Shown: one piece after another, positions 11,002 through 35,758 of the stretch
How positions within the stretch are numbered: position 1 is the stretch's first letter
Layout: each line of letters begins with the position of its first letter
Origin: Planctomycetota bacterium
Lineage (GTDB): Bacteria > Planctomycetota > SZUA-567 > H5-PLA8
DNA length: 64,000 nucleotides
Direction of reading: 5' to 3'
Assembly (NCBI GenBank): GCA_038227875.1
Contig: JBBRPR010000038.1
Location: 1-64,000 of the forward strand
The notes under the pieces: model-generated
What the model was told of the DNA's origin: nothing
The model's input: the letters and a program-made list of their open reading frames with translations, nothing else
The model's database searches: none
Program-made: the position numbers and the translations under genes

Positions 11002-11162
11002 GTTGCGCCTCGCTGATTGGAAGTTGCAGGGCCATGATACGGAGATGGAACTGCCGGGCAAGCAGCACGTCGAAATAAATCCATCAAGGTGCGTGCTTAA
11101 GTTGACCCTAATTTGAAATTAATGCGCTTGTTTTGAAATTTTACGTCTTTATTTATAATCAA

Positions 11163-11180
11163 AATACAACTAAGTGTATT
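11163..11180. promoter_or_regulatory. Palindromic operator candidate AATACA-N6-TGTATT
   Basis: AATACAACTAAGTGTATT in the divergent intergenic region, 16/18 identical to 7049-7066. Confidence 0.55.
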
Positions 11181-11237
11181 ATTGTGTACTTGAGCGCATC
11201 TCGCTCATTTGTCGACACTTCGGGGGAGACTGGCATC

Positions 11238-17094: not shown

Positions 17095-20000
17095 TTAGTT
17101 CTGCGTCACCACAATCGTCACCGTAATCGTCTGTTGCACTCCCGCGCCCTTGGTCAGCGCGGTCGGCGCGGTCAGGCGCAGGTCGAAGGCTTTGTACTGG
17201 CCCGAGTAGAGCATCGACGTCAGCACCTGCGGCGTCGACAGGTTAAGTCCAAACACGCCGGTGAGCGGGACGCTGTTGTCGGCTTTCATCTGGAATTGAT
17301 CGGTGCTCGGCGCGGCTCCGGCAACCCAGCCGCTCGGCGCGGAGGCGGAACACGAGATCGTACACTGCTGGCGGACCGTGCCTGTGTTGACCAGATTCAG
17401 CGCGACGGGGATGGGCGTGTTCGTCGACGCGGTGACGACGTCGTTGAGATCGATCGAGCCCATATCCCAGATGCGCGGCGTAATCGTCGTGTCGTCCCAC
17501 GAGACGGAGAGCACGCCCGCGCCGCCAGGGAGCAGGTCCACGGCCGCGGCGGTTCCGGCGGCCGAAGTCGGATAGCTGTACGTGAAATTTCCAAACGTAT
17601 CCTTCAGGTGAATACCACTGATGATGTAAACACCCGTCGGCACGCCTGCGGAAGTGGCCAGCGGCGAATAGGTACCGCCGGGCGTTAACTGCGGCAGCCC
17701 GGCGAGCGTGATCGTCACCGTGCTGCTGGCTGTCGCGTTGCCGACGACGACGGAGGTATCAAACGTGTCGCCGGTTACCGGCAGACCAATTTCGCCGATC
17801 AGCGCGCCGGTGGATTTCACCGGAATGCTGAACGTCAGCACCACTGTGTCGCCGGCGTCGACGCCCGGATTCGAACTGCCCAGGCCGTCGATCCACTTTG
17901 CGGAGAGCAGCACCGGGACCTGATGCAGCGTTACCGCATTGCCGAGATAACTGATCGAGAACCCTTGTGTGCCGTCGACGCTCATGACCAATCCGCCTTC
18001 CGGCAGGCCATTGAACGTGCCGACGATCGCCGAGGTGGACGTCATGATCGTGTAGAAATTGTTGGTGACGCCAGTGGTCGGCAAACCCGGACCGATGGAG
18101 ACATTCAGCGTGGCGCCGGTGACATTCAACGTGCCGGTCACGCTCAGCTGATCGTACGTCGAACCCAAAGTGGTGCCGTTGAGCAGCGGCGCATAGAGCG
18201 AGCCGGCATTGAAAACGGTGTTGCCTGCGGCATTCAGAATTCCCGTCGCGGCAGGCGTTCCGGGCATCACCACGCCGCCGCTGCTCACGGTCAGCGCGCT
18301 GACACTGCCGGTGCCGCTGAGCGTCGCGGAGTTACCAACGGTCGTCAGACCCGCTCCGGCGGCGAGCGTGCCGTTTACGAAAGTCGTGCCGGCGCTGAGC
18401 GTCGTGGTGCCGGTGTAGGTTTCCGCGGCGGCGAGCGTCACCGATCCGACGCCGGTGTTCGAGATGCCGCCCGAGTTGCTGATGACGCCATTGAGATTTG
18501 TCGCGCCCGCGGAGGCGACGCTTAGCAGCAGCCCTCCATTGTTGAGCGTCCCGCCCAATGTCAAAGTTCCGCCGGCAAAGGTGGTGATCGTGGGTGCGGC
18601 AGTGCCAAAGGCGATGTTGTTGTTGATGGCGTTCGCGCCCGCCGTGGCGCTGTAATTGATCGCCGCCGCGCCGCCTGTCAGGGTGACGCTGTTACCACTG
18701 AGCGTGTAGCCGGCGTCGGTAAAGTTGATCGCGTTGAAACTGGTTCCCGCGGCGATGTCGTTGGTCGTCGTGGTTTTGCGTGCCGCGCCGGCATTTCCGA
18801 ATGTGAGCGTATCGCCGACGCCCGGTGCGACGCCGCCGACCCAGTTCGCACCGTTCGACCAGTTGTCGTTGGCGCCGGCGCCGTTCCAGATGTAGTTACC
18901 GACCACGCGGGTCAGCACCACGCTGTTGGCATTGTAGGTGATCTGGAAATTCTGCCCGCTGATTGGGAAAATCGCGTTATTGGCCAGGCCCGTGAACAAA
19001 TTCGAGCGCGCACCCGTGCTGGTCATGATCGTGAACGCATCGCCGTTGGCTGCCGTGTACCCGCAGGTCACGCTGAGCGTCGCGTTGGTCAGATTGAGCG
19101 TGCCGGTGACGGCCAGCACGTCGAAATTGCCCGCGCCCGTTCCGTTCAACTGAACCTTAAAGGTGGACGCGCTGCTGAACGAGACCGCGCCGGTGCTCAG
19201 CTTGCCGGGATTGGTGTCGGGATCGCCGGGGCTAAGCGTTCCCCCCGTGCCCGTCACAGTGCCGTTGATCGTGCCGGTGCCACCGAGCGTTGCCGATGCG
19301 GCAACGCTCACCGCACTGCCCGCGGCCAGCGAACCGTCGACCAGCATCGTTCCCGCACTGACGGTCGTCGCGCCTGTGTACGTATTAACGCCAGAAAGTT
19401 TCAGCGTGCCCGTTCCGGTTTTGCTCAGCGCACCCGTGCTGGAGATCACGCCGCTGAGCGTGAGCACATTCGTCGCGGTGTCGATCTGAAACGCGCCCGT
19501 GCCGCCCGCGGCTAAGGTGAACGGCATCGTGCTGCTCGGCGACGTATTTCCGGTCAGTTCCAGCGTTCCCGTTTGTGTGTTGGAACCGAGCGTGACCGAC
19601 GGAACGTGGCCGAGCGGCTGATCGGTGCTGACGTTCGCCACCGTTCCCACCGAGATCGCACCCTGCGCGATGGTCGTGCCGCCCGTGAAGGTGTTGGTGC
19701 CGGACAAGGTCAGCGTGCCGGTGCCGGACTTGGTGAGGAATCCGGTACCCGAGATCACGCCCGCATAGGCGGCCGGGCTGGTGTTGTCGGAACCGACCGT
19801 CAGCGTCGCCGCGCCGAGTGTCACGTTGCCGCCGGTAGCTCCGCCGCCGGTGAGCGAACCGATGGTATTGTTGAAGCCAGTGGTGTCGAGAACCACGCCG
19901 GCCGTGTTGGCCAGCGTCACGGCGGACGTCACACCAAACGCCTGCGTCGCGATACCGGCCTTCAGCGTTCCGCCGTTCACGGTCATCGCGCCGGTGTAGG

Positions 20001-23000
20001 CATTCGCGCCGGAGACGGTCAGCGTTCCCGTTCCGGTTTTGGCAATGCCGCCGGTTCCGGAGATCACACCCGCGTACGCGGTGCTCGTGTTGTTCCCGCC
20101 CGCCGTCAAGGTCGCCGCGCCCAGGGTCACATTGCCGCCCAGCGCTCCGCCGCCGGCGAGCGAACCGATGGTGTTGCTGAAGCCGGTGATGTCGAGCGTC
20201 ACGCCCGCAACGTTGGCCAGCGTGACGGCCGAATTGACGCCGAACGCCTGCGTCGCGACGCCGGCTTTCAGCGTTCCCACATTAACTGTAGTCGCGCCGG
20301 AATAGGTGTTGGTTCCAGACAACGTGATCGTGCCCGAACCATTTTGCGTCAACGTTCCTGTTCCGCTGATCGTGTTGCTCACGCCCAGTGCCGCGGTCCG
20401 ATTGAAAATCAGTGCGCCACTGTCGGTGACCGCACCGGTACCGAGCGTCCCGGTCGCTCCGCCGTTGCCGATCTGCAGCGTGCCCGCGTTGATCGAAGTG
20501 GTTCCCGTGTAGGTATTGGTTCCGGTGAAAATCCACGTGCCCGCGTTGCTCTTCGCAACAGACGTTGCGCCACCATTGTCGCCCACCACCGCGGCGAGAA
20601 TATTGCTTCCGGCGTTCGTACCCGTCAGCGTCAGCGTGCGCGTTCCCGCGGCGGCGTTGAAGCCCATCGCGCCGGCATTGTTGAAATTCAGTGCGCCCGC
20701 GCCGGAGGAATCGATCGTGCCGCTATTGATTCCCACACTGAAAAGTCGATCGGTGGTGACACCCGCGCCGGTGTACTGCAGCGTGCCGCCGTCGAGGATC
20801 AGATTCGTCGCGACGTTCGTGGAGGCGCCGATGTTGCTGTTGGCGCCGCCGTTGGCCAGTGACGCGACGCTCAGCGTTCCGGCGGTCACGGCGGTCAGTC
20901 CCGTGTATGTGTTCGTTCCCGAAAGCGTTAGCACGCCACTTCCGGCCTGCGCGACGCTGCCCGTGCCGCTGACCACGTTCGAGACGGCGATGTTGTCGGT
21001 GCGATTAAAGACCAGCGCGCCATTGTCGGTCACACCCGCGGTGCCCAGTGACCCAGTCACGCCGGCGTTACCGATCTGCAAGGTTCCGGCGCTGATGGTG
21101 GTCAGGCCGCTATACGTATTCGCGCCGGTCAGAATCGTCGTGCCGGTTCCCGCTTGAGTCAGGGTGCCCGTTCCACTGATGGCGCTGCTGACGGTGAGTG
21201 CATTTGTACGGTTGAAGGTCAGAATCGCGTTGTCCGTGACCGCTCCAGTGCCGAGCGTACCGGTGAGACCCGCGTTGCCGATCTGCAGCGAGCCTGCGCT
21301 GATCGTCGTGGTTCCGGAGTAGCTGTTGGCACCGGCCAGGATCACCGTCCCCGCGCCGCTGCTGGTAAGTCCGCCGGTGTTGCTGAGCGCGCCGTTGATG
21401 GTCGTCGCGCCGGCTGAAGCCAGCGTCACCAGCAGGCCGCCGTTGTCGATGGCGCCATTGAGCGTCAGTGTGCCGCCGGCGATCGTCGTCACGGTCGGCG
21501 CGGCAGTGGCGAACGTAATCGCATTGTTGATCGTGTTCGCTCCGGCCGTCGCGCTGTAATTCAACGCCGTGGCTCCGCCGGCCAGCGTCACGCCATTGCC
21601 GTTCAGGATGTAACCGGCGCTCTGGAACTGGATGAAATTGAAACTCGTTCCCGCCGCAATGTTGTTGGTGTTGGTGGTCTTGCGCGCTGCGCCGGCGGCT
21701 CCGAAAAGCAGACTGTCGCCGACGCCCGGCGCCACGCCGCCGACCCAGTTAAACCCCGTCGACCAATTATTGTTGCTGCCACCGCCGTTCCAGATGTAAG
21801 TACCGACCACGCGCGTCAGCACCACGCTGTTGGCGTTGTAGGTAATTTTGAAATTCTGGCCGCTGATCGGAAAGATCGTGTTGTTCGGCAAGCCGGCAAA
21901 CGTGCCGCTCACCGCACCCGTGCTGGAAATGATGGTGAACGCCGTCCCGTTGACTGGAAAATAGCCGACGCCGATGGTGGAATTCAGCGTGCTGCCGCCC
22001 AAGTTGATCGCGCCGGTGACGCTGAGCTGATCGTAATTCGTTCCAACAACCGGTCCGTTGATTTGAATATTCAAGTCCGCGGCGGCGTTGAGCGTAACGG
22101 CGCCGGTGGTCAGGATGCCGGGGTTGCTGTCGGGATCGCCGGGACTGATCGCGCCTCCGAGCGCCGACGACGTCACCGTTCCGAAAACGGTGCCGGTGCC
22201 GCCCAGCGTGCCGCCGGTCAGCGAGACGGCGCTGCCCGCCGCGATCGAACCATCAACCAGCAGGTAGCCGTTGTTGATCGTGGTGACGCCGGTGTAGGTG
22301 TTGACGGCCACGAGTTTCAGCGTGCCGGTACCGGACTTGGTCAACGCGGGCGTGTTGGTGTTGACGATGGGATTGTTGATCGTGAGCGTACCGGTGCCGG
22401 CCGTGACCACGATCAATTCCGAAGTCGCGGAGGTCACTGTCAGCGCAATCGCGCCGCCGCCGATGGTCGCCGCAGCTCCGTTGCGCGCGATTAAGCCGCC
22501 CGCGCCGACACTGACGGTGGTCGCGGCTCCGGCCGTCTGCGTCAAGCTGCCACCGGGGTTGAAGGCAATCGAGAATGGCACGTTGGCGGGCGCGCTGTTG
22601 ACCGTCACCGCGTTCTGAACAATCGCCACTGAACCGGCGGTCGGCGGACCGGCCGGCGTCCACGTGGATGGCGTATTCCAATCGGTGTTCGCTTGCGAGG
22701 TATAAACCGGAGCGGCGAAAGTCAGTCCGTTAACGATACCGTCGGCCGCGTTGGTCGTGTCGTATGTGGAAGAACTGGTCACACCGGCAATCGTCACCGT
22801 CGCGTACGTGACAGCTCCGGCAGCCTGTGCGGCGGAGGTCAAGTGCGCCAGCCCCGTTCCGCCGCCGGTGTTGCGAACGTAATTCAACGTCGCTCCGGAC
22901 GTGCGCGAGAAGGCGAGCGTCGAAGCCAGGCGCGTCCGGCCGGTGCCGTTGGGCGTCAGCGAGATGCTGTTGTCGCCGCTGCTGAAGACGAGTTGCGATA

Positions 23001-26000
23001 CCGTTTCCGTACGATCCGTGTTGGCCGGTGCTTCGATGCTGAAATTTCCGCCGTTGAACGTGACGACGGCAGCATCGGGAATGCGATTGGGATTCGCCAC
23101 GCCGCTGGCATCGATATCCAGCGTGCCTCCGGTGTTTAGCGTAACACCGCTGGTGGCCAGTGTCCCGGTGTCGCCTTTCAGTTGCAGCGTGCCGCCGTTG
23201 ACCGTCGTCGCGCCCGTGTACGTTTCGGCAGTGGTGAAAACCAGCGTGCCCAGCGCAGACGTGGAACCGGCCGTGATCGCAAAAGCTCCGCTAATCGTAT
23301 TGGAGAAGGTCACCGTACTTCCGGTCGCCGCCGTAAAAAACGTATTCGAACCCATCGTCACCGTGCCATTAAACGTGCCGGTCGTGCCGGAGAGCGAACC
23401 GATCGTGTTCGTGGACGCGCCGTTACCTGTGGTCGTGATGTTCTGCGGAATCGTGACGTTGCCGTCGATCAGCAGCGCCGCGTTGGCGACCGCGCGGTTG
23501 AACGTCGCGCCGTTGACACCGATTGATGCCGGAGCGCCCAGCGCATTGTTGTTGGCCAGCGCCAGCGTGCCGCACCACACCGCAATGGCCCCGGTGAACG
23601 TATTGTTGCCGCTCAATTCCACCGTGCCGGTAAACGAGCCGGCGGCGTCGCTGTAGCCGACATTCAAATTCGGTCCGCTGACCACGCCGCTGTTGATCCA
23701 CACCGTACCGGGGTTGGCCAGGAAGAACGAGCTGTTGATGCTGATAGCGCGGTTACCCGTAAACGTCGTCGCGCCCACGGCCGCGATGGCGTTGTTGTTG
23801 GTCATGATCAGCGTATTGACCGGGTCGCCGAAACTGGCGTCGCTGTTGAACTCCAGATTCGTCGCGTTGGCCATGGAAAGATTAGCGATGTACGTGTTGG
23901 CTCCGGCCAGCGAGAGCCATGCATCGGAATTTCCAATCAGGTTCAAAGTCTGCCCGACTCCGCCGCCGCTGATCACACCGGTGATCACGATGGGTGTGGC
24001 GGACGTGGTGTTGTTGGGAATGTTGATCGAGATGCCCGTCACGCCGGCGCCCAGCGTCATCGGATTGTTTACATTCGTCACGGCCGTAAGCGTAAATGTC
24101 GTCCCGTCATTGAGTGTAATGGTCGTGGCGGGATCGCCGAGTTGGTTGGCGTTGCTGATCTGCAGAGTGCCTGCCGCAACGGTCAGGAATTCTCCCGCGC
24201 CGCCGAAGGTGTTGACGCCGGTCGGAAGCAGCGTTCCGGTGTTGGTCTTCGTCAGCGAATTGGCGCCCGAGATCACGCCGGAAAGCGTCAGCGTCGTGGC
24301 CGCCGCGACGTTCAGTGTGCCGTCGCCCGCAGCCATGATGTAACCGCGGGCGGAGGTGAATGTCGCAGTCGTCGCCAGCGTACCGCCGCCGAGCGTCACG
24401 GTGTTGGCGGCGTTGCCCAGATTGTTGTCGGCTGCAATCGAGAATGTACCGCCGCTGAGAGTCACGGCGCCGGTAAACGTGCTGGCCACGGGACTGGTCA
24501 GTATTCCGGCTCCAGTTTTCGTCAGCCCCGCCGCGCCGCTGATGATGCCGTTGAGCGCCGTGGCGCCGTCGCTGTTGACCGTCACCAGCAGGCCGCCGTT
24601 GTTGATGGTTCCGCCGATCGTCAGCGTGCCGCCGGCCAGGCAGGTGATCGTCGGCGCGCTGGTGGCGAAGATCAGCGGGATGCTGATGGAGTTGGCACCC
24701 GCAAAATTATTGTTCACCGCCGCCGCGCCGCCGTTGAGCGTCACGCTGTTGCCACTGAGCGTGTAACCGGAATCGGTGAATTGAATCGAGCCGAACGTCG
24801 TCGCCGCAGCGAAATTGTTCGTGTTGGTGGTCTTTCGTGCCGCACCCGCGGCTCCGAAAATCAGATTGTCGCCGACCCCTGGCGCAACGCCGCCGACCCA
24901 GTTGCCTCCGGTCGTCCAGTTGTTGTCCGCGCCTGCGCCGTTCCAGGTGAAATTTCCGACGAAGCGCGTGATCACCACACTGTTGGCGTTGTACGTGATC
25001 TGAAAATTCAATCCACCGATCGCAAAGATGGCGTTGTTGGCCAGCCCGGTGAATGTGTTGGAGATCGCGCCAGTACTGGTAAGAATCGTATACGTATCGC
25101 CGTTAAGCGGCACATAGCCCAGCGTGGCGTTGAGCGTACAATTGGTGAGATTGACCGCGCCGGTGACTGCAATCTGGTCGTACCCGGTACCGACCGTTGT
25201 CGAATTCAATTGCACTTTCAACGATGACGCGGCGGAAAATGAGAGCGCACCGGTCGCCAGAGTTTCGGGATTCGTGTCCGGATCGCCGGCGCTCAGCGTG
25301 CCGCCCGCAACAGTGACGCTGCCGCCGACCGCTCCCGTGCCGCCGAGCGTCGCGCCAGCGCTTACGGTTACCGCGCTGCCGGCGGCAAGAGAACCGTCGA
25401 CGAGCAGAATTCCCGTACTCACCGACGTTGCACCCGTATACGTGTTGACGGCCGTCAGTGTCAGCGTGCTGGAACCCGCCTGCGTCAGCGTGCCCGTGCC
25501 ACCGATGACATTGCTGACGGAATACGCATTGGTCCGGTTGAAAACCAGCGCCGCGTTGTTGGTGACACCGGCGGTGCCGAGCGTACCTGTCGCGCCCGCG
25601 TTTCCGATCTGCAACGTGCCCGCGCTGATCGTCGTTGTTCCGGAATACGTGTTGGCACCGGTGAGAATCGACGTACCTGTGCCCGCCTGCGTCAGCGTGC
25701 CCGTCCCGCTGATCACATTGGCCACGGTCATGCTGTTGGTGCGGTTGAAGGTCAGCGCCGCGTTGTCGGTCACCGCGCCCGTGCCCAGCGTTCCGGTCGC
25801 GCCTGCATTGCCGATCTGCAGTGTGCCGGCGCTGATCGTGGTGGTTGCCGTATACGTGTTCGCACCCGACAGGATCACGGTCCCCGCGGAGGATTTGGTA
25901 AATGCCCCCGCGCCCGCGAGAATTGCCGAAACGGTTCCGGCCTGCATGTCGAACGCCGTCGCACTCGTCACCGTGCCGTTTTGCAACGTACCGTTGTTGA

Positions 26001-26907
26001 CCACCGATACCGTCGGAATCGTCAGAGACTGGGCGCTCAGGTCGACCGTAGCGGTATCAACTTTTAGTGTCCCAGACACAGTTGTTGCGGCGGCGATGGT
26101 TTTCGTACCGCCCACACTGCCGGTGAGATTGACGTACGCTTTCGCGAGCACCGCCTGATTCGCATTCGCGTCGTAGACGACCGTGGCGCCGGTGCCGTTC
26201 AGCGTAACCGTATTCACACCCGTGCCGGATAGCGTCCACGGCGTCGCGTTGCCGAGGTTCAGCGTCGCGCTGCCATTGGTCATGGTAAAGCTTGACGTGT
26301 TGGCTGCGTTGGCGTTGACGGTCGTGAGTGTGCCGTTGACATCCACCAGCCCGCTGCCAAACGTGAAGGCAGCATTGTGAATGCGGGCGTTGCTGGTACC
26401 GATGAAACTGTTGAGCGTCAGAGTGCCAGTCACTACAAACGACGCGATCGACGAGGTCATCGTCATCGCGTAGGTACCGTTAACCGTGGAAGCCACCGCC
26501 GTACCCACGACCACCGTCGCGCACTGCAACGAGCCCGCGCCGGCGATAGTACACGCTGTGGCGCTGTTCAGCAGGCCTTTCAACGTAACGGAAGTGGTGA
26601 CCGTCAGGGTAAAGCCGGCGTTCACCGTGACCGTTCCCGAAGTGCTGCCGAACGCCAGGGAATTGCAGGTCCGGTTGCCATCGACAGTCAGAGTGAAGCC
26701 CGTGCCGACAACGATGTCATCGGTCGCCGCCGGAATAACGCCACCCGGCCACGGCGCGTTGTTCACCACGGAACTCCAGGCGCCCGATCCCGTCGTGGTG
26801 ATTGTCGCCGCCTGCGCGCTGGCGCCAAGGAACAGTACCACCAACGCCGCAGCAAAAATCCCTGCGCGCATCCGTGACTGCACCTCTGGCCATCCAACCA
26901 TCCTCAT
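17095..26907 (-). CDS. Giant secreted adhesin with autotransporter-associated beta-strand (PATR) repeats and a C-terminal pilin-like domain
   Basis: Signal peptide; many LTKxGxGTLxLxGxNTYTGxTxxxxGTL repeats; three internally repeated WNGxG...NWVGGVAPGVGD modules; no C-terminal beta-barrel; last ~140 aa align with the C-terminal domain of the four paralogs at 29487-33229. Confidence 0.9.
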   Translation of the reverse strand: MRMVGWPEVQSRMRAGIFAAALVVLFLGASAQAATITTTGSGAWSSVVNNAPWPGGVIPAATDDIVVGTGFTLTVDGNRTCNSLAFGSTSGTVTVNAGFTLTVTTSVTLKGLLNSATACTIAGAGSLQCATVVVGTAVASTVNGTYAMTMTSSIASFVVTGTLTLNSFIGTSNARIHNAAFTFGSGLVDVNGTLTTVNANAANTSSFTMTNGSATLNLGNATPWTLSGTGVNTVTLNGTGATVVYDANANQAVLAKAYVNLTGSVGGTKTIAAATTVSGTLKVDTATVDLSAQSLTIPTVSVVNNGTLQNGTVTSATAFDMQAGTVSAILAGAGAFTKSSAGTVILSGANTYTATTTISAGTLQIGNAGATGTLGTGAVTDNAALTFNRTNSMTVANVISGTGTLTQAGTGTSILTGANTYSGTTTISAGTLQIGNAGATGTLGTAGVTNNAALVFNRTNAYSVSNVIGGTGTLTQAGSSTLTLTAVNTYTGATSVSTGILLVDGSLAAGSAVTVSAGATLGGTGAVGGSVTVAGGTLSAGDPDTNPETLATGALSFSAASSLKVQLNSTTVGTGYDQIAVTGAVNLTNCTLNATLGYVPLNGDTYTILTSTGAISNTFTGLANNAIFAIGGLNFQITYNANSVVITRFVGNFTWNGAGADNNWTTGGNWVGGVAPGVGDNLIFGAAGAARKTTNTNNFAAATTFGSIQFTDSGYTLSGNSVTLNGGAAAVNNNFAGANSISIPLIFATSAPTITCLAGGTLTIGGTINNGGLLVTVNSDGATALNGIISGAAGLTKTGAGILTSPVASTFTGAVTLSGGTFSIAADNNLGNAANTVTLGGGTLATTATFTSARGYIMAAGDGTLNVAAATTLTLSGVISGANSLTKTNTGTLLPTGVNTFGGAGEFLTVAAGTLQISNANQLGDPATTITLNDGTTFTLTAVTNVNNPMTLGAGVTGISINIPNNTTSATPIVITGVISGGGVGQTLNLIGNSDAWLSLAGANTYIANLSMANATNLEFNSDASFGDPVNTLIMTNNNAIAAVGATTFTGNRAISINSSFFLANPGTVWINSGVVSGPNLNVGYSDAAGSFTGTVELSGNNTFTGAIAVWCGTLALANNNALGAPASIGVNGATFNRAVANAALLIDGNVTIPQNITTTGNGASTNTIGSLSGTTGTFNGTVTMGSNTFFTAATGSTVTFSNTISGAFAITAGSTSALGTLVFTTAETYTGATTVNGGTLQLKGDTGTLATSGVTLNTGGTLDIDASGVANPNRIPDAAVVTFNGGNFSIEAPANTDRTETVSQLVFSSGDNSISLTPNGTGRTRLASTLAFSRTSGATLNYVRNTGGGTGLAHLTSAAQAAGAVTYATVTIAGVTSSSTYDTTNAADGIVNGLTFAAPVYTSQANTDWNTPSTWTPAGPPTAGSVAIVQNAVTVNSAPANVPFSIAFNPGGSLTQTAGAATTVSVGAGGLIARNGAAATIGGGAIALTVTSATSELIVVTAGTGTLTINNPIVNTNTPALTKSGTGTLKLVAVNTYTGVTTINNGYLLVDGSIAAGSAVSLTGGTLGGTGTVFGTVTSSALGGAISPGDPDSNPGILTTGAVTLNAAADLNIQINGPVVGTNYDQLSVTGAINLGGSTLNSTIGVGYFPVNGTAFTIISSTGAVSGTFAGLPNNTIFPISGQNFKITYNANSVVLTRVVGTYIWNGGGSNNNWSTGFNWVGGVAPGVGDSLLFGAAGAARKTTNTNNIAAGTSFNFIQFQSAGYILNGNGVTLAGGATALNYSATAGANTINNAITFATAAPTVTTIAGGTLTLNGAIDNGGLLVTLASAGATTINGALSNTGGLTSSGAGTVILAGANSYSGTTTISAGSLQIGNAGLTGTLGTGAVTDNAILTFNRTNALTVSSAISGTGTLTQAGTGTTILTGANTYSGLTTISAGTLQIGNAGVTGSLGTAGVTDNGALVFNRTDNIAVSNVVSGTGSVAQAGSGVLTLSGTNTYTGLTAVTAGTLSVASLANGGANSNIGASTNVATNLILDGGTLQYTGAGVTTDRLFSVGINSGTIDSSGAGALNFNNAGAMGFNAAAGTRTLTLTGTNAGSNILAAVVGDNGGATSVAKSNAGTWIFTGTNTYTGTTSINAGTLQIGNGGATGTLGTGAVTDSGALIFNRTAALGVSNTISGTGTLTQNGSGTITLSGTNTYSGATTVNVGTLKAGVATQAFGVNSAVTLANVAGVTLDITGFSNTIGSLAGGGALGGNVTLGAATLTAGGNNTSTAYAGVISGTGGIAKTGTGTLTVSGANAYTGAMTVNGGTLKAGIATQAFGVTSAVTLANTAGVVLDTTGFNNTIGSLTGGGATGGNVTLGAATLTVGSDNTSPAAYAGVISGTGFLTKSGTGTLTLSGTNTFTGGTTIAQGAISVGTVANVSTDQPLGHVPSVTLGSNTQTGTLELTGNTSPSSTMPFTLAAGGTGAFQIDTATNVLTLSGVISSTGALSKTGTGTLKLSGVNTYTGATTVSAGTMLVDGSLAAGSAVSVAASATLGGTGTINGTVTGTGGTLSPGDPDTNPGKLSTGAVSFSSASTFKVQLNGTGAGNFDVLAVTGTLNLTNATLSVTCGYTAANGDAFTIMTSTGARSNLFTGLANNAIFPISGQNFQITYNANSVVLTRVVGNYIWNGAGANDNWSNGANWVGGVAPGVGDTLTFGNAGAARKTTTTNDIAAGTSFNAINFTDAGYTLSGNSVTLTGGAAAINYSATAGANAINNNIAFGTAAPTITTFAGGTLTLGGTLNNGGLLLSVASAGATNLNGVISNSGGISNTGVGSVTLAAAETYTGTTTLSAGTTFVNGTLAAGAGLTTVGNSATLSGTGSVSALTVSSGGVVMPGTPAATGILNAAGNTVFNAGSLYAPLLNGTTLGSTYDQLSVTGTLNVTGATLNVSIGPGLPTTGVTNNFYTIMTSTSAIVGTFNGLPEGGLVMSVDGTQGFSISYLGNAVTLHQVPVLLSAKWIDGLGSSNPGVDAGDTVVLTFSIPVKSTGALIGEIGLPVTGDTFDTSVVVGNATASSTVTITLAGLPQLTPGGTYSPLATSAGVPTGVYIISGIHLKDTFGNFTYSYPTSAAGTAAAVDLLPGGAGVLSVSWDDTTITPRIWDMGSIDLNDVVTASTNTPIPVALNLVNTGTVRQQCTISCSASAPSGWVAGAAPSTDQFQMKADNSVPLTGVFGLNLSTPQVLTSMLYSGQYKAFDLRLTAPTALTKGAGVQQTITVTIVVTQN

Positions 26908-26917
26908 CCGAATTCCG

Positions 26918-27226
26918 CTACTCCGCCTTTTCCGCCGCCGAAACCTTGATGTTCGCGTCGTCGATCTTCGAGCCCGTCAGTTTTACTTTCAGTCCCTTGG
27001 CCGCCCAGTCCTTCAGGTCTTTAGCCGTGTCGCTGTCGGCCCACACATTCACGACCACGTCTTTCGCGCCTTCCTTGAACGTCAGCGTTGCTACGACTCC
27101 TTCTTTTGCGCCCGCCGGGGCCGCCGCCAGCGTGCCCGTCCAGACCTGATTGATCGCACTGGCCGGCGCCGACAGCAGCAGTAAAAACACCAGCGCCAGC
27201 GGCACCGCCTGATTCATTCGTCGCAT
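26918..27226 (-). CDS. Small secreted beta-rich protein, unknown function
   Basis: Signal peptide ending APASA; tightly packed in the operon (10-11 nt gaps); AAGGA RBS. Confidence 0.8.
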   Translation of the reverse strand: MRRMNQAVPLALVFLLLLSAPASAINQVWTGTLAAAPAGAKEGVVATLTFKEGAKDVVVNVWADSDTAKDLKDWAAKGLKVKLTGSKIDDANIKVSAAEKAE

Positions 27227-27237
27227 CGCGTCATCCT

Positions 27238-28419
27238 TTATTTTCGCTTCAGCACAAACCGAGCGTTGGCGTTCAGCACGTTCCGGCTGACTTTGTAGAG
27301 CACCTTCGGCTGATCGATGTACACCTGGTTGCTCAGCGTCAGACTGATCGGCAGCGACGCCATCGCGCCGGCCTTGGGCGTGGCCACGTTGGTCAGGCCG
27401 CTGGCCGCGAGCGCCGCCGCAAAGTCGCCGCGGAGGAAGAAGTTGATCTTCACCGGCCCGCCGAAGAACTGTTTCCGGATCAGTTTGCGGACGAGCGAGA
27501 AGCGATTGGTGCCGGACTTGCCACGTCCGTTCTTATCCATCGTGAATGTCGCCGTCACATTCCCCACAGCGACCTGCACCGTTTGTTTCAGCGGATTGAA
27601 TCCCGCCGGCAGCGTCACCAGGCCGAAGACCTGAATTCGGTCGCGGCCCTTGATCTTGAAGTTTAAATTGATGCTCGCGCGCGTGACCGTCCACGGCAGC
27701 ACCGTCGGCGGAATCACTGCCGCGCCCTGCGAAACCTTGACCAGCATCGGCACCAGCAACACGCCTCCGAAGCCATCGGTGACCGTGATCGTTGCCAGGT
27801 ACGAATTGGCCGTGGGATAGTTATGCTGAACCGTCGCCCCGCTGCCAAACGTCCCATCGCCAAAATCCCACGAATAGTTCAGCGTCGCCCCGACCGGGCT
27901 CGTCGCCAGACACGTGAAGTTGACCATGTCCGCCGTCGTCGGCGCCGCCGGAGAAAAACTCGGATTGATCGTAAACACCGGCGGAATATCGCCGTAGTTG
28001 AAGGCCAGGCCGGAGCCCTTAGGTATCGGCACGTTACCGGGTGTGCGGAACACGTTGTCGAAGAGAGCCACCCGCTTGGCGCCGAAACTGTTCAGCGAAC
28101 CATCGTAAAGTATATTGAGCGTGCGAGCGTCGGCCCAGACCAATTGACGCGCGGTCAGGCCGGCAGGCAGCAGGACCTGCTTAATGTCGATCTGCGTGAT
28201 ATTCATGTCTTCGCTAAAGACGAATTGAATCTGAGGTGTGGCGCTGGTGATTGTCGAACCGTCCGTCGGAAGTGTTGAGATAATGACCGGCGCGTTTCCG
28301 GTTCGGTTCGCGACCGTCGCGCTGATACCGACTCCCAGACCTGAATTCTTGCTTGCTGCCGCAAATACAGACGAAGCTGTTAGAGTTGCCAGCAGGCAAA
28401 GAATCCAAGATCTAAACAT
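27238..28419 (-). CDS. Secreted Ig-like plus PKD protein with an N-terminal pilin-type strand and a basic C-terminal domain (putative pilus base/anchor)
   Basis: Signal peptide; SKNSGLGVGISATVANR; Big_5-like APVIISTLP...FSEDM; PKD motif YSWDFGDG; C-terminal domain shared with 11238-16154 and 54040-56442. Confidence 0.85.
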   Translation of the reverse strand: MFRSWILCLLATLTASSVFAAASKNSGLGVGISATVANRTGNAPVIISTLPTDGSTITSATPQIQFVFSEDMNITQIDIKQVLLPAGLTARQLVWADARTLNILYDGSLNSFGAKRVALFDNVFRTPGNVPIPKGSGLAFNYGDIPPVFTINPSFSPAAPTTADMVNFTCLATSPVGATLNYSWDFGDGTFGSGATVQHNYPTANSYLATITVTDGFGGVLLVPMLVKVSQGAAVIPPTVLPWTVTRASINLNFKIKGRDRIQVFGLVTLPAGFNPLKQTVQVAVGNVTATFTMDKNGRGKSGTNRFSLVRKLIRKQFFGGPVKINFFLRGDFAAALAASGLTNVATPKAGAMASLPISLTLSNQVYIDQPKVLYKVSRNVLNANARFVLKRK

Positions 28420-28465
28420 AACCAGGCCTTTTTCACAGTTGCATCATCAAGAAGTAGCGCACTTT

Positions 28466-29404
28466 TCACGGCTTTTTGGCCGGCGCAATGTCCGCGAGTG
28501 GTTGCAGCGCGATAATCGATCGCGCCCGCAGAAAATCAGTTACTTTGCCTTTCTCATCGGCGACAAAAACCAGCTCTTCATAGTTCTTGCCGCGCACTGC
28601 TGAGGAGGGCACGTTCACTTTCAACGATAGAGCTTTGGATTCACCCGCTTTCAAGGTGAAGGGCTTGTCCATTTCGATCCATTCGTCTTTTAGCACCGGT
28701 GTGCAACCTTTGCCGTAATAGCGTTCGTGGTGTCCGACTTCCTTTTCCACCTCGCCGATCCGCTTCAACGAGTATGTGTGTTCCTCTTTCGAATTATTCG
28801 TGAATTTGGTCAGCACCGTCCAGAACGTTCCTGGTTGCGTCTCCGGCATTTCCAGTATGGAAGGAATTACCGTCGTTTCGCCAAGCGCTTCTTTCGACAT
28901 CGGTTCGGCGAGCGTTTCCAATTGAACTCGTGATGCAACTTGCAAGCCAACAACGCCCGTCGCATTGGCTTTACCAGGGCTGCAGCAGACCACAACCATC
29001 CATTTTTGATTGTACAATTCTGGTTTGTCGGGAACTTTAACGAACAAGTTCACTTTGCCTTCGGATTTGGCCGGGACTTCCAACTCTTCTTTATCCAGCG
29101 AGCACCAAGCAGCATCAGGAATGTCACGGTATCCCAGTTCCCAAGAACCTAGAACGCCAGAAACCTTCCTCACAGCGATGTTGAAAACCTGCGCCTTGTC
29201 CGTACCGTTGTAGACAATGAATGAGCCTGTACCCGCGAAGACATCGACCTTGTCGGCTCCGGGGCGAATGTTCTCGACCAGAACCATTCCTGGCCCGATG
29301 CCAAATCCGGTTCCACCTTCAGCACCCCACGCTGGCGAGGTCGTAACTAGAACTGCCAGCACGATTACGAAAGAGCGAAATAAGGAAGAAGATGGAATGT
29401 GCAT
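28466..29404 (-). CDS. Secreted two-Ig-domain protein, DUF916-like or fimbrial chaperone-like
   Basis: Signal peptide; two internally similar domains with VxNxT...W...LxVPAxSxxxVxLxVKVP patterns recalling PapD/EcpB-like chaperones and DUF916. The ORF is solid; the functional call is inference. Confidence 0.65.
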   Translation of the reverse strand: MHIPSSSLFRSFVIVLAVLVTTSPAWGAEGGTGFGIGPGMVLVENIRPGADKVDVFAGTGSFIVYNGTDKAQVFNIAVRKVSGVLGSWELGYRDIPDAAWCSLDKEELEVPAKSEGKVNLFVKVPDKPELYNQKWMVVVCCSPGKANATGVVGLQVASRVQLETLAEPMSKEALGETTVIPSILEMPETQPGTFWTVLTKFTNNSKEEHTYSLKRIGEVEKEVGHHERYYGKGCTPVLKDEWIEMDKPFTLKAGESKALSLKVNVPSSAVRGKNYEELVFVADEKGKVTDFLRARSIIALQPLADIAPAKKP

Positions 29405-29486
29405 GCGTGTGCCCCTCAGAAAAGAGGACTTCCTCTCAAAAATTTAATTTGGCAAATTCCGGCAAAAACGTCCATGCGAGTATCCC

Positions 29487-30341
29487 TCAGTTAGCCGTTG
29501 CCGTCAATGTAACGTTGTACTGATTCAGCACTCCCGCGTTTCCGGCCGTCACTGTGGTGGGGTTGTCCACTTCCAACACCAAGGGCATGTCGGTGGCAGT
29601 GGTCAAGTTCACGGTCAGATTCTGAGCGGTAAACAGAGAGGTGGGCGCGACACCGTTCATTCCGCCTTTGATGGCCACGACGTTTGGACCGGCCGCGGCG
29701 GCGAGATTGAAAGGCCCTGCAGTCTTCACAGCAATAGCGCTGATGGTGCAGGCACTGCCTGTGGCCGAGACATTCGAAACGTTGATCGTTTTGTTGTTTT
29801 GCGCATCGTCGCTGCGGTAGATCGTGGCGAGGTCTGTCTGACTAGCCGCCAATAGCGTGCTGTCCTTGACGGTCCACGCATAGTTGGAAACCCGATTGGC
29901 GGGCTGGGTATGATCCACGGACCCATCGTCCGGCGTAGTGCCGTTACCCCACTGAATCTGGGCGCGCTTGGAAACGGTGGTGCTAACGACGACAACCAAC
30001 TGGTTGTTGCGGGAGACATACGTGTAGAAATTAGCGGCGGATACCGTGCCATTGACCGTAACCGTCACGGCGCCGGCCGATCCCGCGGGGGTCAAGGCGA
30101 CATCCAGCGTGTTGTTGGCCACATTCACTGCGGTCACGGTTGCCGAGGTGGCGCCAAAGAGAACGGTATTGCTGGCAGGTGTTGCATTGATCGCAATACC
30201 GGAGGTGAAAATTCGCACGAGCTGGCCGCCTGTGGCGGGTCCGCTGTTAGGGGAGATCGAGTTGACGGTAGCTGCGAAGGTGTTGCCGAGCGAAGCGAGG
30301 AGAAGAAGCAGCGCAAGTTTGAACGTTCGGGTCATCGTCAT
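29487..30341 (-). CDS. IPT/TIG domain plus pilin-like domain secreted protein (paralog 4)
   Basis: Signal peptide; ISPNSGPATGGQLVRI IPT start; conserved RAQIQWG...NYAWTVKD...VTLTATAN C-terminal domain. Confidence 0.88.
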   Translation of the reverse strand: MTMTRTFKLALLLLLASLGNTFAATVNSISPNSGPATGGQLVRIFTSGIAINATPASNTVLFGATSATVTAVNVANNTLDVALTPAGSAGAVTVTVNGTVSAANFYTYVSRNNQLVVVVSTTVSKRAQIQWGNGTTPDDGSVDHTQPANRVSNYAWTVKDSTLLAASQTDLATIYRSDDAQNNKTINVSNVSATGSACTISAIAVKTAGPFNLAAAAGPNVVAIKGGMNGVAPTSLFTAQNLTVNLTTATDMPLVLEVDNPTTVTAGNAGVLNQYNVTLTATAN

Positions 30342-30371
30342 TGAGTCCGCGTTTCAGGAAGTGTTGTCCCA

Positions 30372-30409
30372 AACAAACAAAGGTGGCGCCGTGCAATTCC
30401 CGGCGCCAC
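30372..30409 (-). terminator. Terminator-like hairpin inside the operon
   Basis: GTGGCGCCG/CGGCGCCAC 9-bp stem, followed on the minus strand by CTTTGTTTGTTT, just after the stop of 30423-31295. Confidence 0.55.
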
Positions 30410-30422
30410 ACTCGATCGATTC

Positions 30423-31295
30423 TTAGTTCGCCGTCGCTGTCATCGTCACGTTGTAGGTATTCAGCACGCCGGCGTTACCAGAAGTGACCGTGGTCGGCGT
30501 GTCGAATTCCAGAACCAGCGGCTGATCGGTCGTGGTGAGCAAACTTCCCGTCAATGTCTGAGCGGTGAACAGCGAAGTGAGTGCACCAGCGCCCATTGCT
30601 CCTTTGATCGCGACAACGTCGGGACCGGCGGTGGCCGCGAGATTGAAGTTACCGGCCGTCTTGGTGGCAATCGCACTGATCGTGCAGGCATTTCCAGTCG
30701 ACGAAACATTGGAGACGTTGATCGTCTTGTTGTTTTGCGCATCGTCGCTGCGGTAGATCGTGCCTAGATCGGTCTGGAGCGAAGCCAGCAGCGTGCTGTC
30801 TTTCACCGTCCAGGCGTAATTGGAGATGCGGTTGGCAGCCAGTGTATGGTCGACAGCACCGTCGTCAACCGTTGTGCCAGTACCCCACTGGATCTGTGCG
30901 CGCTTGGCCACTGTATCGCTGACCACCACGACGAGCGTGTTGTTGCGAGAAACGAACGTATACAACGTATTTGCCACATTGGTGCCATTTGCGTTGGTGA
31001 CCGTGACGCTCAGGTTCGCGCCCGCTACGGCTGCCAACGTCGTAAAGTCGCAGGTAGTGGTGGTCGCTGCACTGGCGGGAATGCCACCGGCGGGGAGACC
31101 GTTGATTTTGACCAGGTTGTTCGCCGCGGTGGTATCGAAATTGGTGCCGTAAATTCGAATGAGCTGCCCGCCGGCAATTGGACCGCTATTCGGCGAAACA
31201 GCCGTGACGGTGGGGACGGCAGCGAGAGCCTGGCTGGACATGCCAACGGCGGCCACGACGGCTACAGCTAGAATGAGTGAGTTCAACTTTTTCAT
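30423..31295 (-). CDS. IPT/TIG domain plus pilin-like domain secreted protein (paralog 3)
   Basis: Signal peptide; PTVTAVSPNSGPIAGG IPT start; same C-terminal domain, ending VTMTATAN; GGAG RBS. Confidence 0.9.
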   Translation of the reverse strand: MKKLNSLILAVAVVAAVGMSSQALAAVPTVTAVSPNSGPIAGGQLIRIYGTNFDTTAANNLVKINGLPAGGIPASAATTTTCDFTTLAAVAGANLSVTVTNANGTNVANTLYTFVSRNNTLVVVVSDTVAKRAQIQWGTGTTVDDGAVDHTLAANRISNYAWTVKDSTLLASLQTDLGTIYRSDDAQNNKTINVSNVSSTGNACTISAIATKTAGNFNLAATAGPDVVAIKGAMGAGALTSLFTAQTLTGSLLTTTDQPLVLEFDTPTTVTSGNAGVLNTYNVTMTATAN

Positions 31296-31339
31296 GTCCG
31301 CTTCTCCAAGGTGTCTACTATTTCAAGTCTTGAAAGAAC

Positions 31340-31368
31340 CGCCCGCAGTCGTTACACGACTGCGGGCG
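31340..31368. other. Perfect 13-bp intergenic stem-loop
   Basis: CGCCCGCAGTCGT-TAC-ACGACTGCGGGCG between paralogs 2 and 3. Confidence 0.65.
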
Positions 31369-31384
31369 TTGGCACCGGTCTAGG

Positions 31385-32263
31385 TTAGTTGCCCGTGGCA
31401 GTCAAGGTCACGGTGACGACGGCGGTCTGGCCCTGATTTCCATTTGTAATGGTGGTCGGGGAATCAAATTCCAGGACGAGAGGCTGGTCTGAACCAACCG
31501 TTAGATTGTTCGTCAATGTTTTTGCAGTAAACAGGTTCTTCATTGCAGTGTTGTTCATTTCGCCGCTGACTGAAATGACGTCAGGAGCAGCCGCAGCAGC
31601 CAACGTGTAAGGTGCGCCACCCGTCGCAATTGCACTGATGGTGCAGCTCGAACCGGCAATCGAAGAGACGTTCGAAACGTTGATCGTCTTGCCATTGTTG
31701 AAATCGTCGCTGCGGTAGTTGGTTGCCAAGTCGATCTGTTGCTTGCCAGCGATTACGCCAATCGAGTTGTCTTTTACCGTCCAAGCGTAGTTGGTGATGT
31801 AATCGGCAGCCACCGTGTGATCGACGGAGGCATCGTCCACCGTCGTTCCTGTGCCCCACTGGATCTGCGCACGATTGGCCACTGTCGCGCTGATCTGCAC
31901 AACCAGCTTGTTGTTACGAGAAACAAATTTGTAATTGACTGCGCCGCCACTCTGAGTGCTGGCGCCTGAAGAATTGGTATTTACAACAACCAAGCCTGAA
32001 CCAGTCGTGGTCGTTGCCAGGGTTGTGCAGGTAAGCTGCGTCGCGGTTGCAGCCGTGACCGTGACAGCCACGCCGTTCAATGTCACGACGTTATTGGCTG
32101 CCGTCGTGTCGAATCCCGAGCCATAGATACGAACAAACTGACCGCCACCGGACGGGCCGCTGGTAGGCGAAATCGCGGTCACATCGGATACTGCTGCGAA
32201 CGCGCTACCGGATACCACCATCGCCGCCAAAACCATCACCACCTTCAGTAAGTTCGTCTTCAT
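31385..32263 (-). CDS. IPT/TIG domain plus pilin-like domain secreted protein (paralog 2)
   Basis: Start moved to ATG 32263 (AAGGAG RBS, signal peptide MKTNLLK...SAFA); SRNNKLVVQISATVANRAQIQW; ends VTVTLTATGN. Confidence 0.9.
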   Translation of the reverse strand: MKTNLLKVVMVLAAMVVSGSAFAAVSDVTAISPTSGPSGGGQFVRIYGSGFDTTAANNVVTLNGVAVTVTAATATQLTCTTLATTTTGSGLVVVNTNSSGASTQSGGAVNYKFVSRNNKLVVQISATVANRAQIQWGTGTTVDDASVDHTVAADYITNYAWTVKDNSIGVIAGKQQIDLATNYRSDDFNNGKTINVSNVSSIAGSSCTISAIATGGAPYTLAAAAAPDVISVSGEMNNTAMKNLFTAKTLTNNLTVGSDQPLVLEFDSPTTITNGNQGQTAVVTVTLTATGN

Positions 32264-32386
32264 CCCCGCGTCTCCTTTGCAAAAGCTCCTAGGTTGTAAA
32301 GTTTTCACAGTATCCGAGTGCCGGTGGTTCCAATTCTGTTTCAAGTTTGACTTCCCTCCCCCACGCCGTGCGCGGTGCCCGTTTGG

Positions 32387-33229
32387 TTAGTTCGCTGTAG
32401 ACACCAGCGTCACTGTTGAAGTCTGTGCCACTCCTGCCGCCGCCGCCGTAATGCTCGTTGGCGTCGCCATCTCCAGTACCAGCGCTTGGTCCGTACCCTT
32501 GACCAGTGCGTTGGTCAGCACTGTTGGCGCGGCGCTCAGTGCCACCGGAGCCGCGCCGCCCAGGGACGCGCGCAGACGAAAGGTGTTTGCTCCTGCGGCG
32601 GCGCCAATGGTCCAGGACGCGGTGTTGGTGGCGATGGCATTGATCGTATTCGTGGCGTTGGTGGGCGAGATATTCGAGAGGTTGATGACCTTGTTATTCA
32701 ACGCATCGTTGCTTTGGTAGACCGTGTTTACGTCCGCGTTCACGCCCAGCGAACTGTCTTTTACAATCCACATATAGTTGGTGATGCGGTTGGCACCGAC
32801 AGTGTGGTCGACACCCGCGTCGTCGACGCTTGTACCGTTGCCCCACTGGATGTCGGAGCGCTTCGGGATCGTCAGCACCACGGACACCTGAACATTAACG
32901 TTTCCGTTCGTGTATGTGTAGCCATTCGCCAGCGTCGAGGTTCCGATTCCCGCTCCGTTGGTCACCGAGATCGTGACGTTGCCGACGGTGTGAGCGGGAA
33001 CTACAGCGCTGATTGTAGCGTCGTCGATCACTGTAAAAGTCGCAGGCGAGATGCCGAAGGTGACGCCAGTTGCCGCACCATTGTTAAAGTTTGAACCAGA
33101 GATCGTCACCGTCGTGCCGCCATTGATCGTGCCCGAATTCGGAACCACGCCAGAGATCGTCGGCACAGCGGCCCCGAATGCAGCGCGGGTCATGAACGCG
33201 AAGATGAAGATCAAGGTGCCGGTTTTCAC
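32387..33229 (-). CDS. IPT/TIG domain plus pilin-like domain secreted protein (paralog 1)
   Basis: GTG 33229 after AAGGA; canonical IPT domain PTISGVVPNSG..GGTTVTISGSNF...VTFG; C-terminal domain ends TVTLVSTAN. Confidence 0.9.
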   Translation of the reverse strand: MKTGTLIFIFAFMTRAAFGAAVPTISGVVPNSGTINGGTTVTISGSNFNNGAATGVTFGISPATFTVIDDATISAVVPAHTVGNVTISVTNGAGIGTSTLANGYTYTNGNVNVQVSVVLTIPKRSDIQWGNGTSVDDAGVDHTVGANRITNYMWIVKDSSLGVNADVNTVYQSNDALNNKVINLSNISPTNATNTINAIATNTASWTIGAAAGANTFRLRASLGGAAPVALSAAPTVLTNALVKGTDQALVLEMATPTSITAAAAGVAQTSTVTLVSTAN

Positions 33230-35619: not shown

Positions 35620-35758
35620 GGCGTACCTCTTAAAGGTGAACTCACTAGTGCTGACGAAACGCCGCGCAGAAACTTGGGTCGATTTACATAGGGGCGTTGG
35701 CTTCTTGCATGTGTTATTTGACGTGTCATAGTTACTACGCCATCGGGGAGAAAACCGC

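Follow-up and report, generated by a model that had tools for sequence, protein, structure and literature searches.

Introduction

Donor-strand pili are textbook structures of the Proteobacteria, where they depend on an usher. For the Bacillota they have only just been reported, in a preprint that, in the part of its text available to us, confines the system to that phylum (10.64898/2026.10.17.759780; bioRxiv preprint, 17 Oct 2026). According to that text, the enterococcal elr/WxL cluster builds a pilus by chaperone-guided donor-strand exchange: ElrD and ElrC are pilins, each combining an N-terminal strand with an incomplete WxL immunoglobulin (Ig) fold, ElrA is the tip, with a payload and an acceptor-only C-terminal WxL domain, ElrB is the base, with a strand only and an LPxTG motif, and ElrE is a DUF916/DUF3324-type chaperone with a membrane anchor (10.64898/2026.10.17.759780). 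The same text states that the system was detected in Bacillota only, among 4,698 genera screened with Pfam-based rules (10.64898/2026.10.17.759780). Here we analyze a 64,000-nucleotide (nt) stretch of DNA from a Planctomycetota bacterium (contig JBBRPR010000038.1, positions 1 to 64,000), henceforth the window, which carries a cluster of eight genes, g1 to g8, on its minus strand. Judged by the accessible part of the preprint, the WxL/Elr pilus of Enterococcus faecalis and other Bacillota is the closest known system. Based on the sequence comparisons, predicted structures and gene conservation described below, the cluster probably encodes a thin, non-covalent donor-strand fibre of the cell surface, with g8 as the tip, g1-g4 as a shaft decorated with IPT domains, g6 as the base or anchor and g5 as a periplasmic assembly factor.

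The eight open reading frames (ORFs) lie head to tail in the same orientation between positions 17095 and 33229, with spacers of 10-123 nt, a gap of ~630 nt upstream of the cluster and a convergent cyclase-like gene downstream. Each of the eight proteins begins with a hydrophobic, signal-peptide-like N-terminus, as judged by eye on the translations, with no predictor being used. The genes and their relevant parts are as follows (aa, amino acids).

32387-33229, minus strand: g1, IPT domain, putative donor strand and pilin-like C-domain, paralog 1 (Pfam TIG 1.4e-15; C-domain profile 1-177); the ORF is open up to a TTG at 33277
31385-32263, minus strand: g2, IPT domain, putative donor strand and pilin-like C-domain, paralog 2; the ORF is open to 32344
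30423-31295, minus strand: g3, IPT domain, putative donor strand and pilin-like C-domain, paralog 3, the paralog used for folding
30900-30953, minus strand: putative donor strand of g3, VSRNNTLVVVVSDTVAKR, residues 2-19 of the folded 177-aa part and interface residues of copy 3 in the three-copy model
29487-30341, minus strand: g4, IPT domain, putative donor strand and pilin-like C-domain, paralog 4
28466-29404, minus strand: g5, secreted 312-aa Ig-like protein, candidate periplasmic chaperone or assembly factor, adjoining pilin genes across loci
27238-28419, minus strand: g6, 393 aa, with signal peptide, strand, Big_5, PKD and a conserved C-terminal domain of ~165 aa, candidate donor-only base
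28300-28359, minus strand: N-terminal 20 residues of mature g6, donor-like strand GLGVGISATVANR
27241-27738, minus strand: C-terminal domain of g6, conserved in loci of the window's own family, candidate envelope anchor, without a Pfam match
26918-27226, minus strand: g7, 102-aa secreted protein, probably not a core part, without an assigned family
17095-26907, minus strand: g8, 3270-aa PATR-repeat adhesin, candidate tip
17098-17535, minus strand: C-terminal acceptor-only pilin-like domain of g8, profile positions 27-177, with 'AVDLLPGG' where the donor strand would be

As far as the available preprint text allows a comparison, the locus resembles WxL/Elr in its four roles, that is a tip (ElrA, here g8), pilins (ElrD and ElrC, here g1-g4 and the small pilins of related loci), a base (ElrB, here g6) and a two-domain Ig-like assembly protein encoded alongside (ElrE, here the candidate g5, with a sub-threshold match to PF06030). 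Both systems lack an usher and both have modular tip payloads. On the other hand, neither the C-domain nor the genome studied here has a match to PF13731, g5 lacks a C-terminal hydrophobic or membrane helix, g6 shows no LPxTG motif with a membrane helix behind it, and there is no sortase logic. Moreover, the strand often follows an N-terminal IPT payload, and the host is a diderm planctomycete, in contrast to the Bacillota of the preprint. It is possible, though less likely than not, that the locus is a distant homologue, and not a mere analogue, of this Gram-positive chaperone-pilin system, in a diderm without an usher.

Results

Putative donor and acceptor elements are divided among the encoded proteins

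The products of g1-g4 (280-292 aa) each contain one IPT/TIG domain (Pfam E 1e-6 to 1e-15), followed by ~177 residues, hereafter the C-domain part, for which neither Pfam nor NCBIfam gives a match. NCBIfam likewise returns no family for g1-g7 as a whole. The large g8 protein matches PATR in 14 stretches (Pfam, 2.2e-69) and autotrns_rpt in 16 stretches, and can be described as a PATR/autotransporter-repeat protein without a barrel. Its last ~146 residues align with the C-domain of the paralogs from profile position 27 onwards; the first ~26 positions are absent, and with them the 'NNxLVVxVSxTVxKR' strand. The reverse is seen in g6, where GLGVGISATVANR directly follows the signal peptide and shares eight consecutive residues with g2 (ISATVANR), while the C-domain is lacking.

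This agrees with a preliminary description of the same DNA, made from its letters alone, which had recognized eight co-oriented genes with signal peptides, four paralogous proteins with IPT and beta-domains, an adhesin with the C-terminal domain only and a PKD protein with the strand only. The strings quoted there are present as well, SRNNKLVVQISATVANR in g2 and VTLTATAN in g4. For g5, in which two Ig domains had been seen, the second half has Ig-like Pfam matches and the first half has none, so the two-domain assignment is only half shown.

In alignment A5, pilin-type rows carry the alternating strand right after the signal peptide or payload, ahead of an 'IxW' strand. In its place, six rows of large proteins (g8, L015, L016, L017, P0046 and P0053) have A-x-D-[LI]-x-P-G, and three further rows have a short 'xLTF' stretch only. 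Consistently, with a hidden Markov model (HMM) based on alignment A3, matches start at profile positions 9-17 in large proteins versus 1-4 in small ones.

In all g6 homologues, the signal peptide is directly followed by an alternating strand. An unrestricted comparison of cognate and non-cognate strands was weak (mean 23.5, n=14, versus 20.1, n=112) and often chose other segments; it was replaced by a test of the N-terminus against the rest of the protein. In this test, the N-terminal 20 residues of mature g6 are the best window of the whole protein against the cognate pilin strands, with a score of 33 compared to a background maximum of 20. Across nine loci, the corresponding residues of the g6-type protein give the best match of the whole protein in five, and in locus L028 base and pilin strands are identical at nine of ten residues. 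The C-terminal domain of g6 has blastp or HMM matches in L015, L017-L020, L044, L045, L049, L052 and L053. Its HMM gives no match in loci of the second family, where the strand-first protein has other domains, and an atlas look-up gave leads below 0.9 only. At the level of sequences and profiles, acceptor-only tip-type, donor-plus-acceptor pilin and donor-only base-type proteins are thus encoded together.

The C-domain is predicted to adopt a pilin-like fold

The C-domain part of g3 was modeled with AlphaFold2 (AF2), using an alignment of 79 rows, at a predicted local distance difference test score (pLDDT) of 95.0 and a predicted template modelling score (pTM) of 0.87. This run superseded an earlier model of full-length g3 from seven rows, which was unusable (pLDDT 53, C-domain below 50). 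Neither residues 1-21, with the strand among them, nor residues 44-51 are modeled as a sheet strand in the monomer.

Foldseek searches of the PDB yielded a single match at E ≤ 0.001, 7ueg_A, the bundling pilus of Pyrobaculum (E 2.3e-4, probability 1.00, template modelling score 0.45). Next in rank are the TasA fibre 8aur (8.3e-3), CfaB, CS20, TTHA1873, Csu, type 1 pilus subunits and a Sulfolobus thread. VIA-align, run independently of Foldseek on all 48,161 representative chains, places the Sulfolobus thread 7pnb (Z 7.0, root-mean-square deviation 7.5 Å, 137 aligned residues) and 7ueg (Z 7.0, 7.4 Å, 144 aligned) at the top, with a model range of 3/5-177, followed at Z 5.5-6.6 by cannulae, TasA (8aur, 6.1), Tafi and many chaperone-usher pilins. 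The models thus support a fold class for the C-domain, that of a pilin-like Ig sandwich. Of the comparison that the preliminary description had proposed, with pilins, WxL proteins and TasA, donor-strand filaments and pilins indeed rank first, but no solved WxL pilin or ElrD structure is among the matches, the PDB copy being older than the WxL/Elr preprint. Sequence profiles of the C-domain against the PDB gave nothing, or chance Ig matches only (E 0.19-0.95).

With the chaperone-usher pili (type 1, P, CFA/I, Csu), whose pilins and pilin domains are among these matches, the locus would share head-to-tail donor-strand complementation of an incomplete Ig-like pilin, predicted here, an acceptor-only two-domain tip adhesin, a donor-bearing terminator and a soluble Ig-like periplasmic partner. 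It differs in the lack of an usher and of a PapD_N chaperone in the genome, and in the lack of a sequence relation. TasA, the AbpA bundling pili, Sulfolobus threads, cannulae and Tafi, the best structural matches, are polymers with N-terminal donor strands assembled without an usher, and TapA, of the TasA system, resembles g6 as a strand-only partner. In contrast to the present locus, however, these systems lack both a tip adhesin built on a shared module and a conserved Ig-like partner comparable to g5, their hosts are monoderms or archaea, and Peptidase_M73 finds no match here.

Copies of g3 are predicted to exchange strands

A model of three copies of the C-domain part of g3 (alignment A3) gives ipSAE values (interaction prediction score from aligned errors) of 0.71, 0.72 and 0.71, compared to 0.00 for the best of three controls, in which an unrelated protein replaced the partner. 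Among proteins solved as pairs of one chain, 20 of 30 attained the ipSAE mark, compared to one of 23 among those solved as single chains. The runs have at least 96% of contacts in common, with a partner pLDDT of at least 90. The interface joins residues 2-19 (the NNTLVVVVSDTV strand), 86-89 and 141 of copy 3 to residues 19-24, 44-51, 147-157 and 159-175 of copy 2, the pairs with the lowest error being 47:10, 49:12 and 51:14 as well as 169:10, 170:12 and 171:9. The donor is modeled parallel to strand 44-51, beside the next copy's C-terminal strand. This modeled interface is the arrangement of donor-strand-exchanged pilins, and it supports binding. A strand acting in trans, as the preliminary description had envisaged, is thereby predicted for the paralog, in the monomer of which it stays unpaired.

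The C-domain defines a rare family with varied payloads

A word-indexed homologue search with the C-domain yielded only six proteins and a full profile search was used instead (HMMER, 1.84 billion representatives). It found 86 proteins at E ≤ 1e-3, 45 of them at ≤ 1e-10, and in all 86 the match reaches the C-terminus. Pfam has no match for the domain at E ≤ 10. Members with named hosts belong to the Planctomycetota and Candidatus Omnitrophota. The domain occurs in eight of 401 sampled Planctomycetota genomes, spread over three families, and in six of 17 genomes of the window's own family; the five copies in the window's own genome all lie within this cluster. Because the profile finds 86 C-terminal members and the gene set recurs in other genomes (see below), the cluster represents more than a chance association.

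Among 59 member proteins scanned with Pfam, 22 have IPT/TIG ahead of the C-domain. The others carry NHL propellers, PATR, Peptidase_C25, RCC1, CotH/PA14/cadherin-like domains, MBG or Big_3_5, or no payload, and many members of ~170-200 aa consist of signal peptide, strand and domain, and nothing else. In P0084 and P0031 (Omnitrophota and other members) a gingipain-like Peptidase_C25 precedes the C-domain, which suggests that enzymes, and not adhesins alone, may be mounted through this module. A sorting signal resembling that of the type IX secretion system (T9SS-CTD) or PEP-CTERM was considered for these varied payloads and dropped in view of the donor/acceptor split and the predicted trans-strand interface.

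The gene set recurs in other genomes

All five loci of the own family with enough sequence (L015, L017-L020) encode a large protein (826-1261 aa), one or two small proteins of the pilin type (185-369 aa), a g5 homologue (32-52% identity) and a g6 homologue; L016 reaches the contig edge after the second gene. In the second family (L028, L029, L031 and L032), a g5 homologue follows the pilin genes in all four loci and a strand-first ORF, with differing downstream domains, follows g5 in three of them. In metagenome loci found through g5, a C-domain ORF lies directly upstream of g5 on the same strand in 19 of 26 cases (in L052 only at E 5e-4), and four of the seven misses have less than 600 nt upstream of g5. 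These metagenome rows are not independent, some of them duplicating counted contigs of metagenome-assembled genomes (L044 mirrors L015 and L053 mirrors L019). The gene types accordingly recur in Planctomycetota loci of three families and in metagenome contigs, in line with the joint conservation expected in the preliminary description, while flanking genes vary from locus to locus.

Some related loci show additional features. In L029, a gene between those for the strand-first protein and the tip adhesin (10826-12967, minus strand; genome G114, contig C275) encodes a protein of 714 aa, acidic in its N-terminal region, whose C-terminal part is an outer-membrane beta-barrel (Pom 1.5e-12, OMP_b-brl) ending in ...GVSYAF. 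This protein has no counterpart in the window's locus and is a candidate pore or anchor. In the second-family g5 homologues of L031 (6518-7777) and L032 (4750-5943), of ~400-420 aa, a lipobox-like Cys follows the signal peptide, and a long Pro/Ala-rich linker is present. These features suggest a membrane-tethered form, reminiscent of the membrane-anchored WxL chaperone. L033 (1639-6301; genome G237, contig C7), a third-family variant, encodes a 176-aa pilin, a 636-aa C-domain protein and a DUF11/CARDB-like protein, together with a 197-aa protein with a single Ig-like domain, ending in a hydrophobic helix and a basic tail, a DUF916-like topology (NPCBM_assoc 2e-3).

g5 is tightly linked to the pilin genes, g7 is not

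Pfam detects only generic Ig-like matches in g5, all in its second half (FixG_C 1e-6, fn3_5 1e-4), and a match to WxLIP_PGBD/DUF916 (PF06030) at 4.7e-4 and 20.6 bits, under the cut-off of 27.3. In the g5 family of 34 members, FixG_C is found in 27 and fn3_5 in 25, with no PapD_N match at E ≤ 0.1. The family has two conserved motifs, W-E-x-G-Y-E-E-I-P-D-A-S-W-C and P-D-K-P-E-Y-Y-N. Among 5.8 billion clusters, 28 close proteins were found, all annotated as hypothetical and, where an organism is named, from Planctomycetota; an atlas look-up gave unnamed Elusimicrobiota clusters and low-share WxLIP_PGBD clusters. A g5 homologue almost always adjoins pilin genes and is their most tightly linked partner, as expected of a dedicated assembly factor. 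From this linkage, the analogy with ElrE and the sub-threshold likeness to DUF916, we infer that g5 acts as a periplasmic chaperone or assembly factor.

The 102-aa g7 protein had been counted as part of the system, a view that its distribution does not bear out. Without a Pfam match of its own, g7 has paralogs with 39-54% identity on three other contigs of the same genome (G000; C116:2702-3007, C30:31894-32199 and C19:56863-57078), none of which, as inspected, adjoins a pilin locus or giant adhesin. Small secreted proteins of this type also occur in genera without the pilin domain. Because of these unlinked paralogs and relatives, g7 is probably a local passenger or accessory and not a core part.

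Families of known pilus systems are absent from the genome

The genome of the window (9.34 Mb, 88.1% complete) was searched for families of known systems, control genomes giving a match in each search. Neither Usher (PF00577; E. coli as positive control) nor PapD_N (PF00345) was detected, in line with the usher-less character previously noted for the operon, and none of the eight proteins matches PF00577. There is no WxL domain (PF13731; positive in Lactococcus) or Peptidase_M73 (PF12389; positive in Bacillus subtilis) in the genome or in the C-domain, and no WxLIP_PGBD/DUF916 (PF06030; controls positive) in the genome at E ≤ 0.01. Among the eight proteins, Pfam finds no sortase family, again as described previously. 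The control genomes of Thermotoga maritima, Methanosarcina acetivorans and Lactococcus have PF06030 matches, and therefore DUF916-like proteins exist well outside the Bacillota, where they may mark further pilin partners not yet recognized.

Since it fails the Pfam definitions of WxL/Elr, chaperone-usher and TasA systems, we read the locus as a variant of the donor-strand pilus not described in the phylum. A full-text search of a limited literature collection returned no paper linking Planctomycetes or Planctomycetota to donor-strand assembly or chaperone-usher pili.

Other features of the window

One further element lies within the cluster.

31340-31368, minus strand: terminator-like hairpin in the g2-g3 gap (89 nt), with a 13-bp stem (10 G-C) and a T-rich tail, from a consensus scan only

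Partial terminators after major pilin genes occur in other pilus operons. The hairpin could be such a partial terminator, raising the first two paralogs relative to the other genes. The neighbours of the cluster include other large secreted proteins, namely a 1673-aa Big_7/He_PIG/PKD protein (11133-16154, plus strand), a 665-aa protein without a family (33862-35859, minus strand), a GHL15 glycosyl-hydrolase-like protein (35759-36931, plus strand) and a 1267-aa CBM9 protein (36950-40753, minus strand). These genes would fit surface- or polysaccharide-related surroundings; they are not conserved with the locus.

Discussion

The computational results support domain homology, the fold class, a predicted trans-strand interface and a conserved gene set of tip, pilin, g5 and base; from these, we infer the places of tip and base, a chaperone role for g5, the anchoring and an usher-free passage through the outer membrane. 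In the mechanism that we propose, each shaft subunit (g1-g4 and, in related loci, plain proteins of ~185-200 aa) would contain an incomplete Ig-like pilin domain, and neighbouring subunits would lock by lending a strand to the groove of the next one. Because g8 has the groove domain and lacks the strand, it could serve only as a tip, at the distal end. Because g6 has the strand only, it could cap the last groove at the base with its mature N-terminus, and the conserved domain at its C-terminus would attach the fibre to the envelope. The IPT domains, N-terminal to the strand in g1-g4, would decorate the fibre, while g5 would keep subunits assembly-competent in the periplasm, like the DUF916 chaperone of the WxL/Elr pilus. 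At the level of prediction, neither a strand bound in cis nor a broken synteny occurred, so that the donor-strand pilus first suggested in the preliminary description is supported.

Several observations weigh against this proposal. All evidence is computational, the fibre is known here from predictions alone, and no route across the outer membrane was identified. The structural matches are modest: a Z of 7.0 lies under ~8 and may, by the yardstick of VIA-align, reflect only a common arrangement, and FimH/FmlH lectin domains, the GH123 N-domain, MSP and ASH domains also score Z 5.5-6.6. The strand-exchange model covers copies of the g3 C-domain part only and was run with its own alignment and three copies, outside the calibration of the tool; its ipSAE pass may come in part from the model's memory of solved donor-strand pilins. 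Furthermore, the strand of g1-g4 is internal, behind the IPT domain, unlike classical N-terminal extensions, and in the remaining four of the nine loci with a g6-type protein, the N-terminus is among the top windows but 3-13 background windows score at least equally. Linkage is not complete either, as three of the 26 metagenome loci have at least 1 kb upstream of g5 and show no C-domain ORF, and the ORF after g5 lacks a clear strand in L046 and L047. Finally, PF06030 stays sub-threshold in 22 of the 34 g5-family members (E ≤ 0.1, best 1.9e-5), and the g5 profile reaches EfmWxLIP1 in the PDB at E 1.3 only.

The same data can be read in other ways. The C-domain might be a docking module, by which proteins are held singly or as short oligomers on g6 through strand and groove, forming a coat and no long fibre. 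The great variety of payloads, reminiscent of a sorting or anchor module, and the combination of a strand with a conserved C-terminal domain in g6 would suit such a display complex, and long polymers might be impeded by the IPT payload that precedes the strand; WxL domains, too, have long been read as wall-binding anchors, according to the accessible part of one article (PMC10599100). We nevertheless consider it unlikely, as the model predicts head-to-tail chaining for subunits that possess strand and groove alike, and related loci keep a payload-free protein of ~185-200 aa, made of strand and domain, a form that is sensible chiefly for the subunit of a polymer. A matrix fibre of the TasA/AbpA/thread type that forms without a chaperone, with pilins self-assembling outside the cell, g5 as another envelope or matrix component and g6 as a TapA-like nucleator, is in our view quite unlikely. 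The best structural matches are indeed chaperone-free filaments (7ueg, 7pnb, 8aur, CanA and Tafi), and TapA is reported, in the available text of the source, to act on TasA by strand complementation (PMC10151520). However, Peptidase_M73 is absent from the genome and, at E ≤ 10, from the C-domain, the most tightly linked partner is g5, directly downstream of a C-domain gene in the 19 metagenome loci mentioned above, and in a diderm host, subunits have to persist in the periplasm until they are assembled.

An ordinary cluster of unrelated Ig-like adhesins, with a self-contained C-domain, the strand in cis and an artefactual interface, appears very improbable. Ig-like folds are common, matches at Z 6-7 are unspecific and structure predictors often place chains side by side, but the controls remained at 0.00 versus 0.71, the strand is unpaired in the monomer model, and acceptor-only and donor-only forms are conserved across loci together with the gene set.

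The occurrence of the same four roles in Planctomycetota and Omnitrophota, with a pilin domain covered by no Pfam model and in a genome without an usher, would widen the known range of donor-strand assembly chemistry. It raises the question by what route subunits get across the outer membrane when no usher is present, and gives testable candidates for surface fibres and for the display of giant adhesins in a phylum with a poorly understood cell surface. The modular C-terminal module would explain how payloads as varied as PATR adhesins, C25 peptidases and NHL and RCC1 propellers are mounted on one fibre. Planctomycete cell surfaces carry protein fibres that are uncharacterised. If the homology with WxL/Elr were true, the locus would provide the first molecular candidate for these fibres, and chaperone-guided donor-strand pili would constitute an ancient cross-phylum class, present in Planctomycetota, Omnitrophota, Bacillota and perhaps beyond, that Pfam-based screens have missed.

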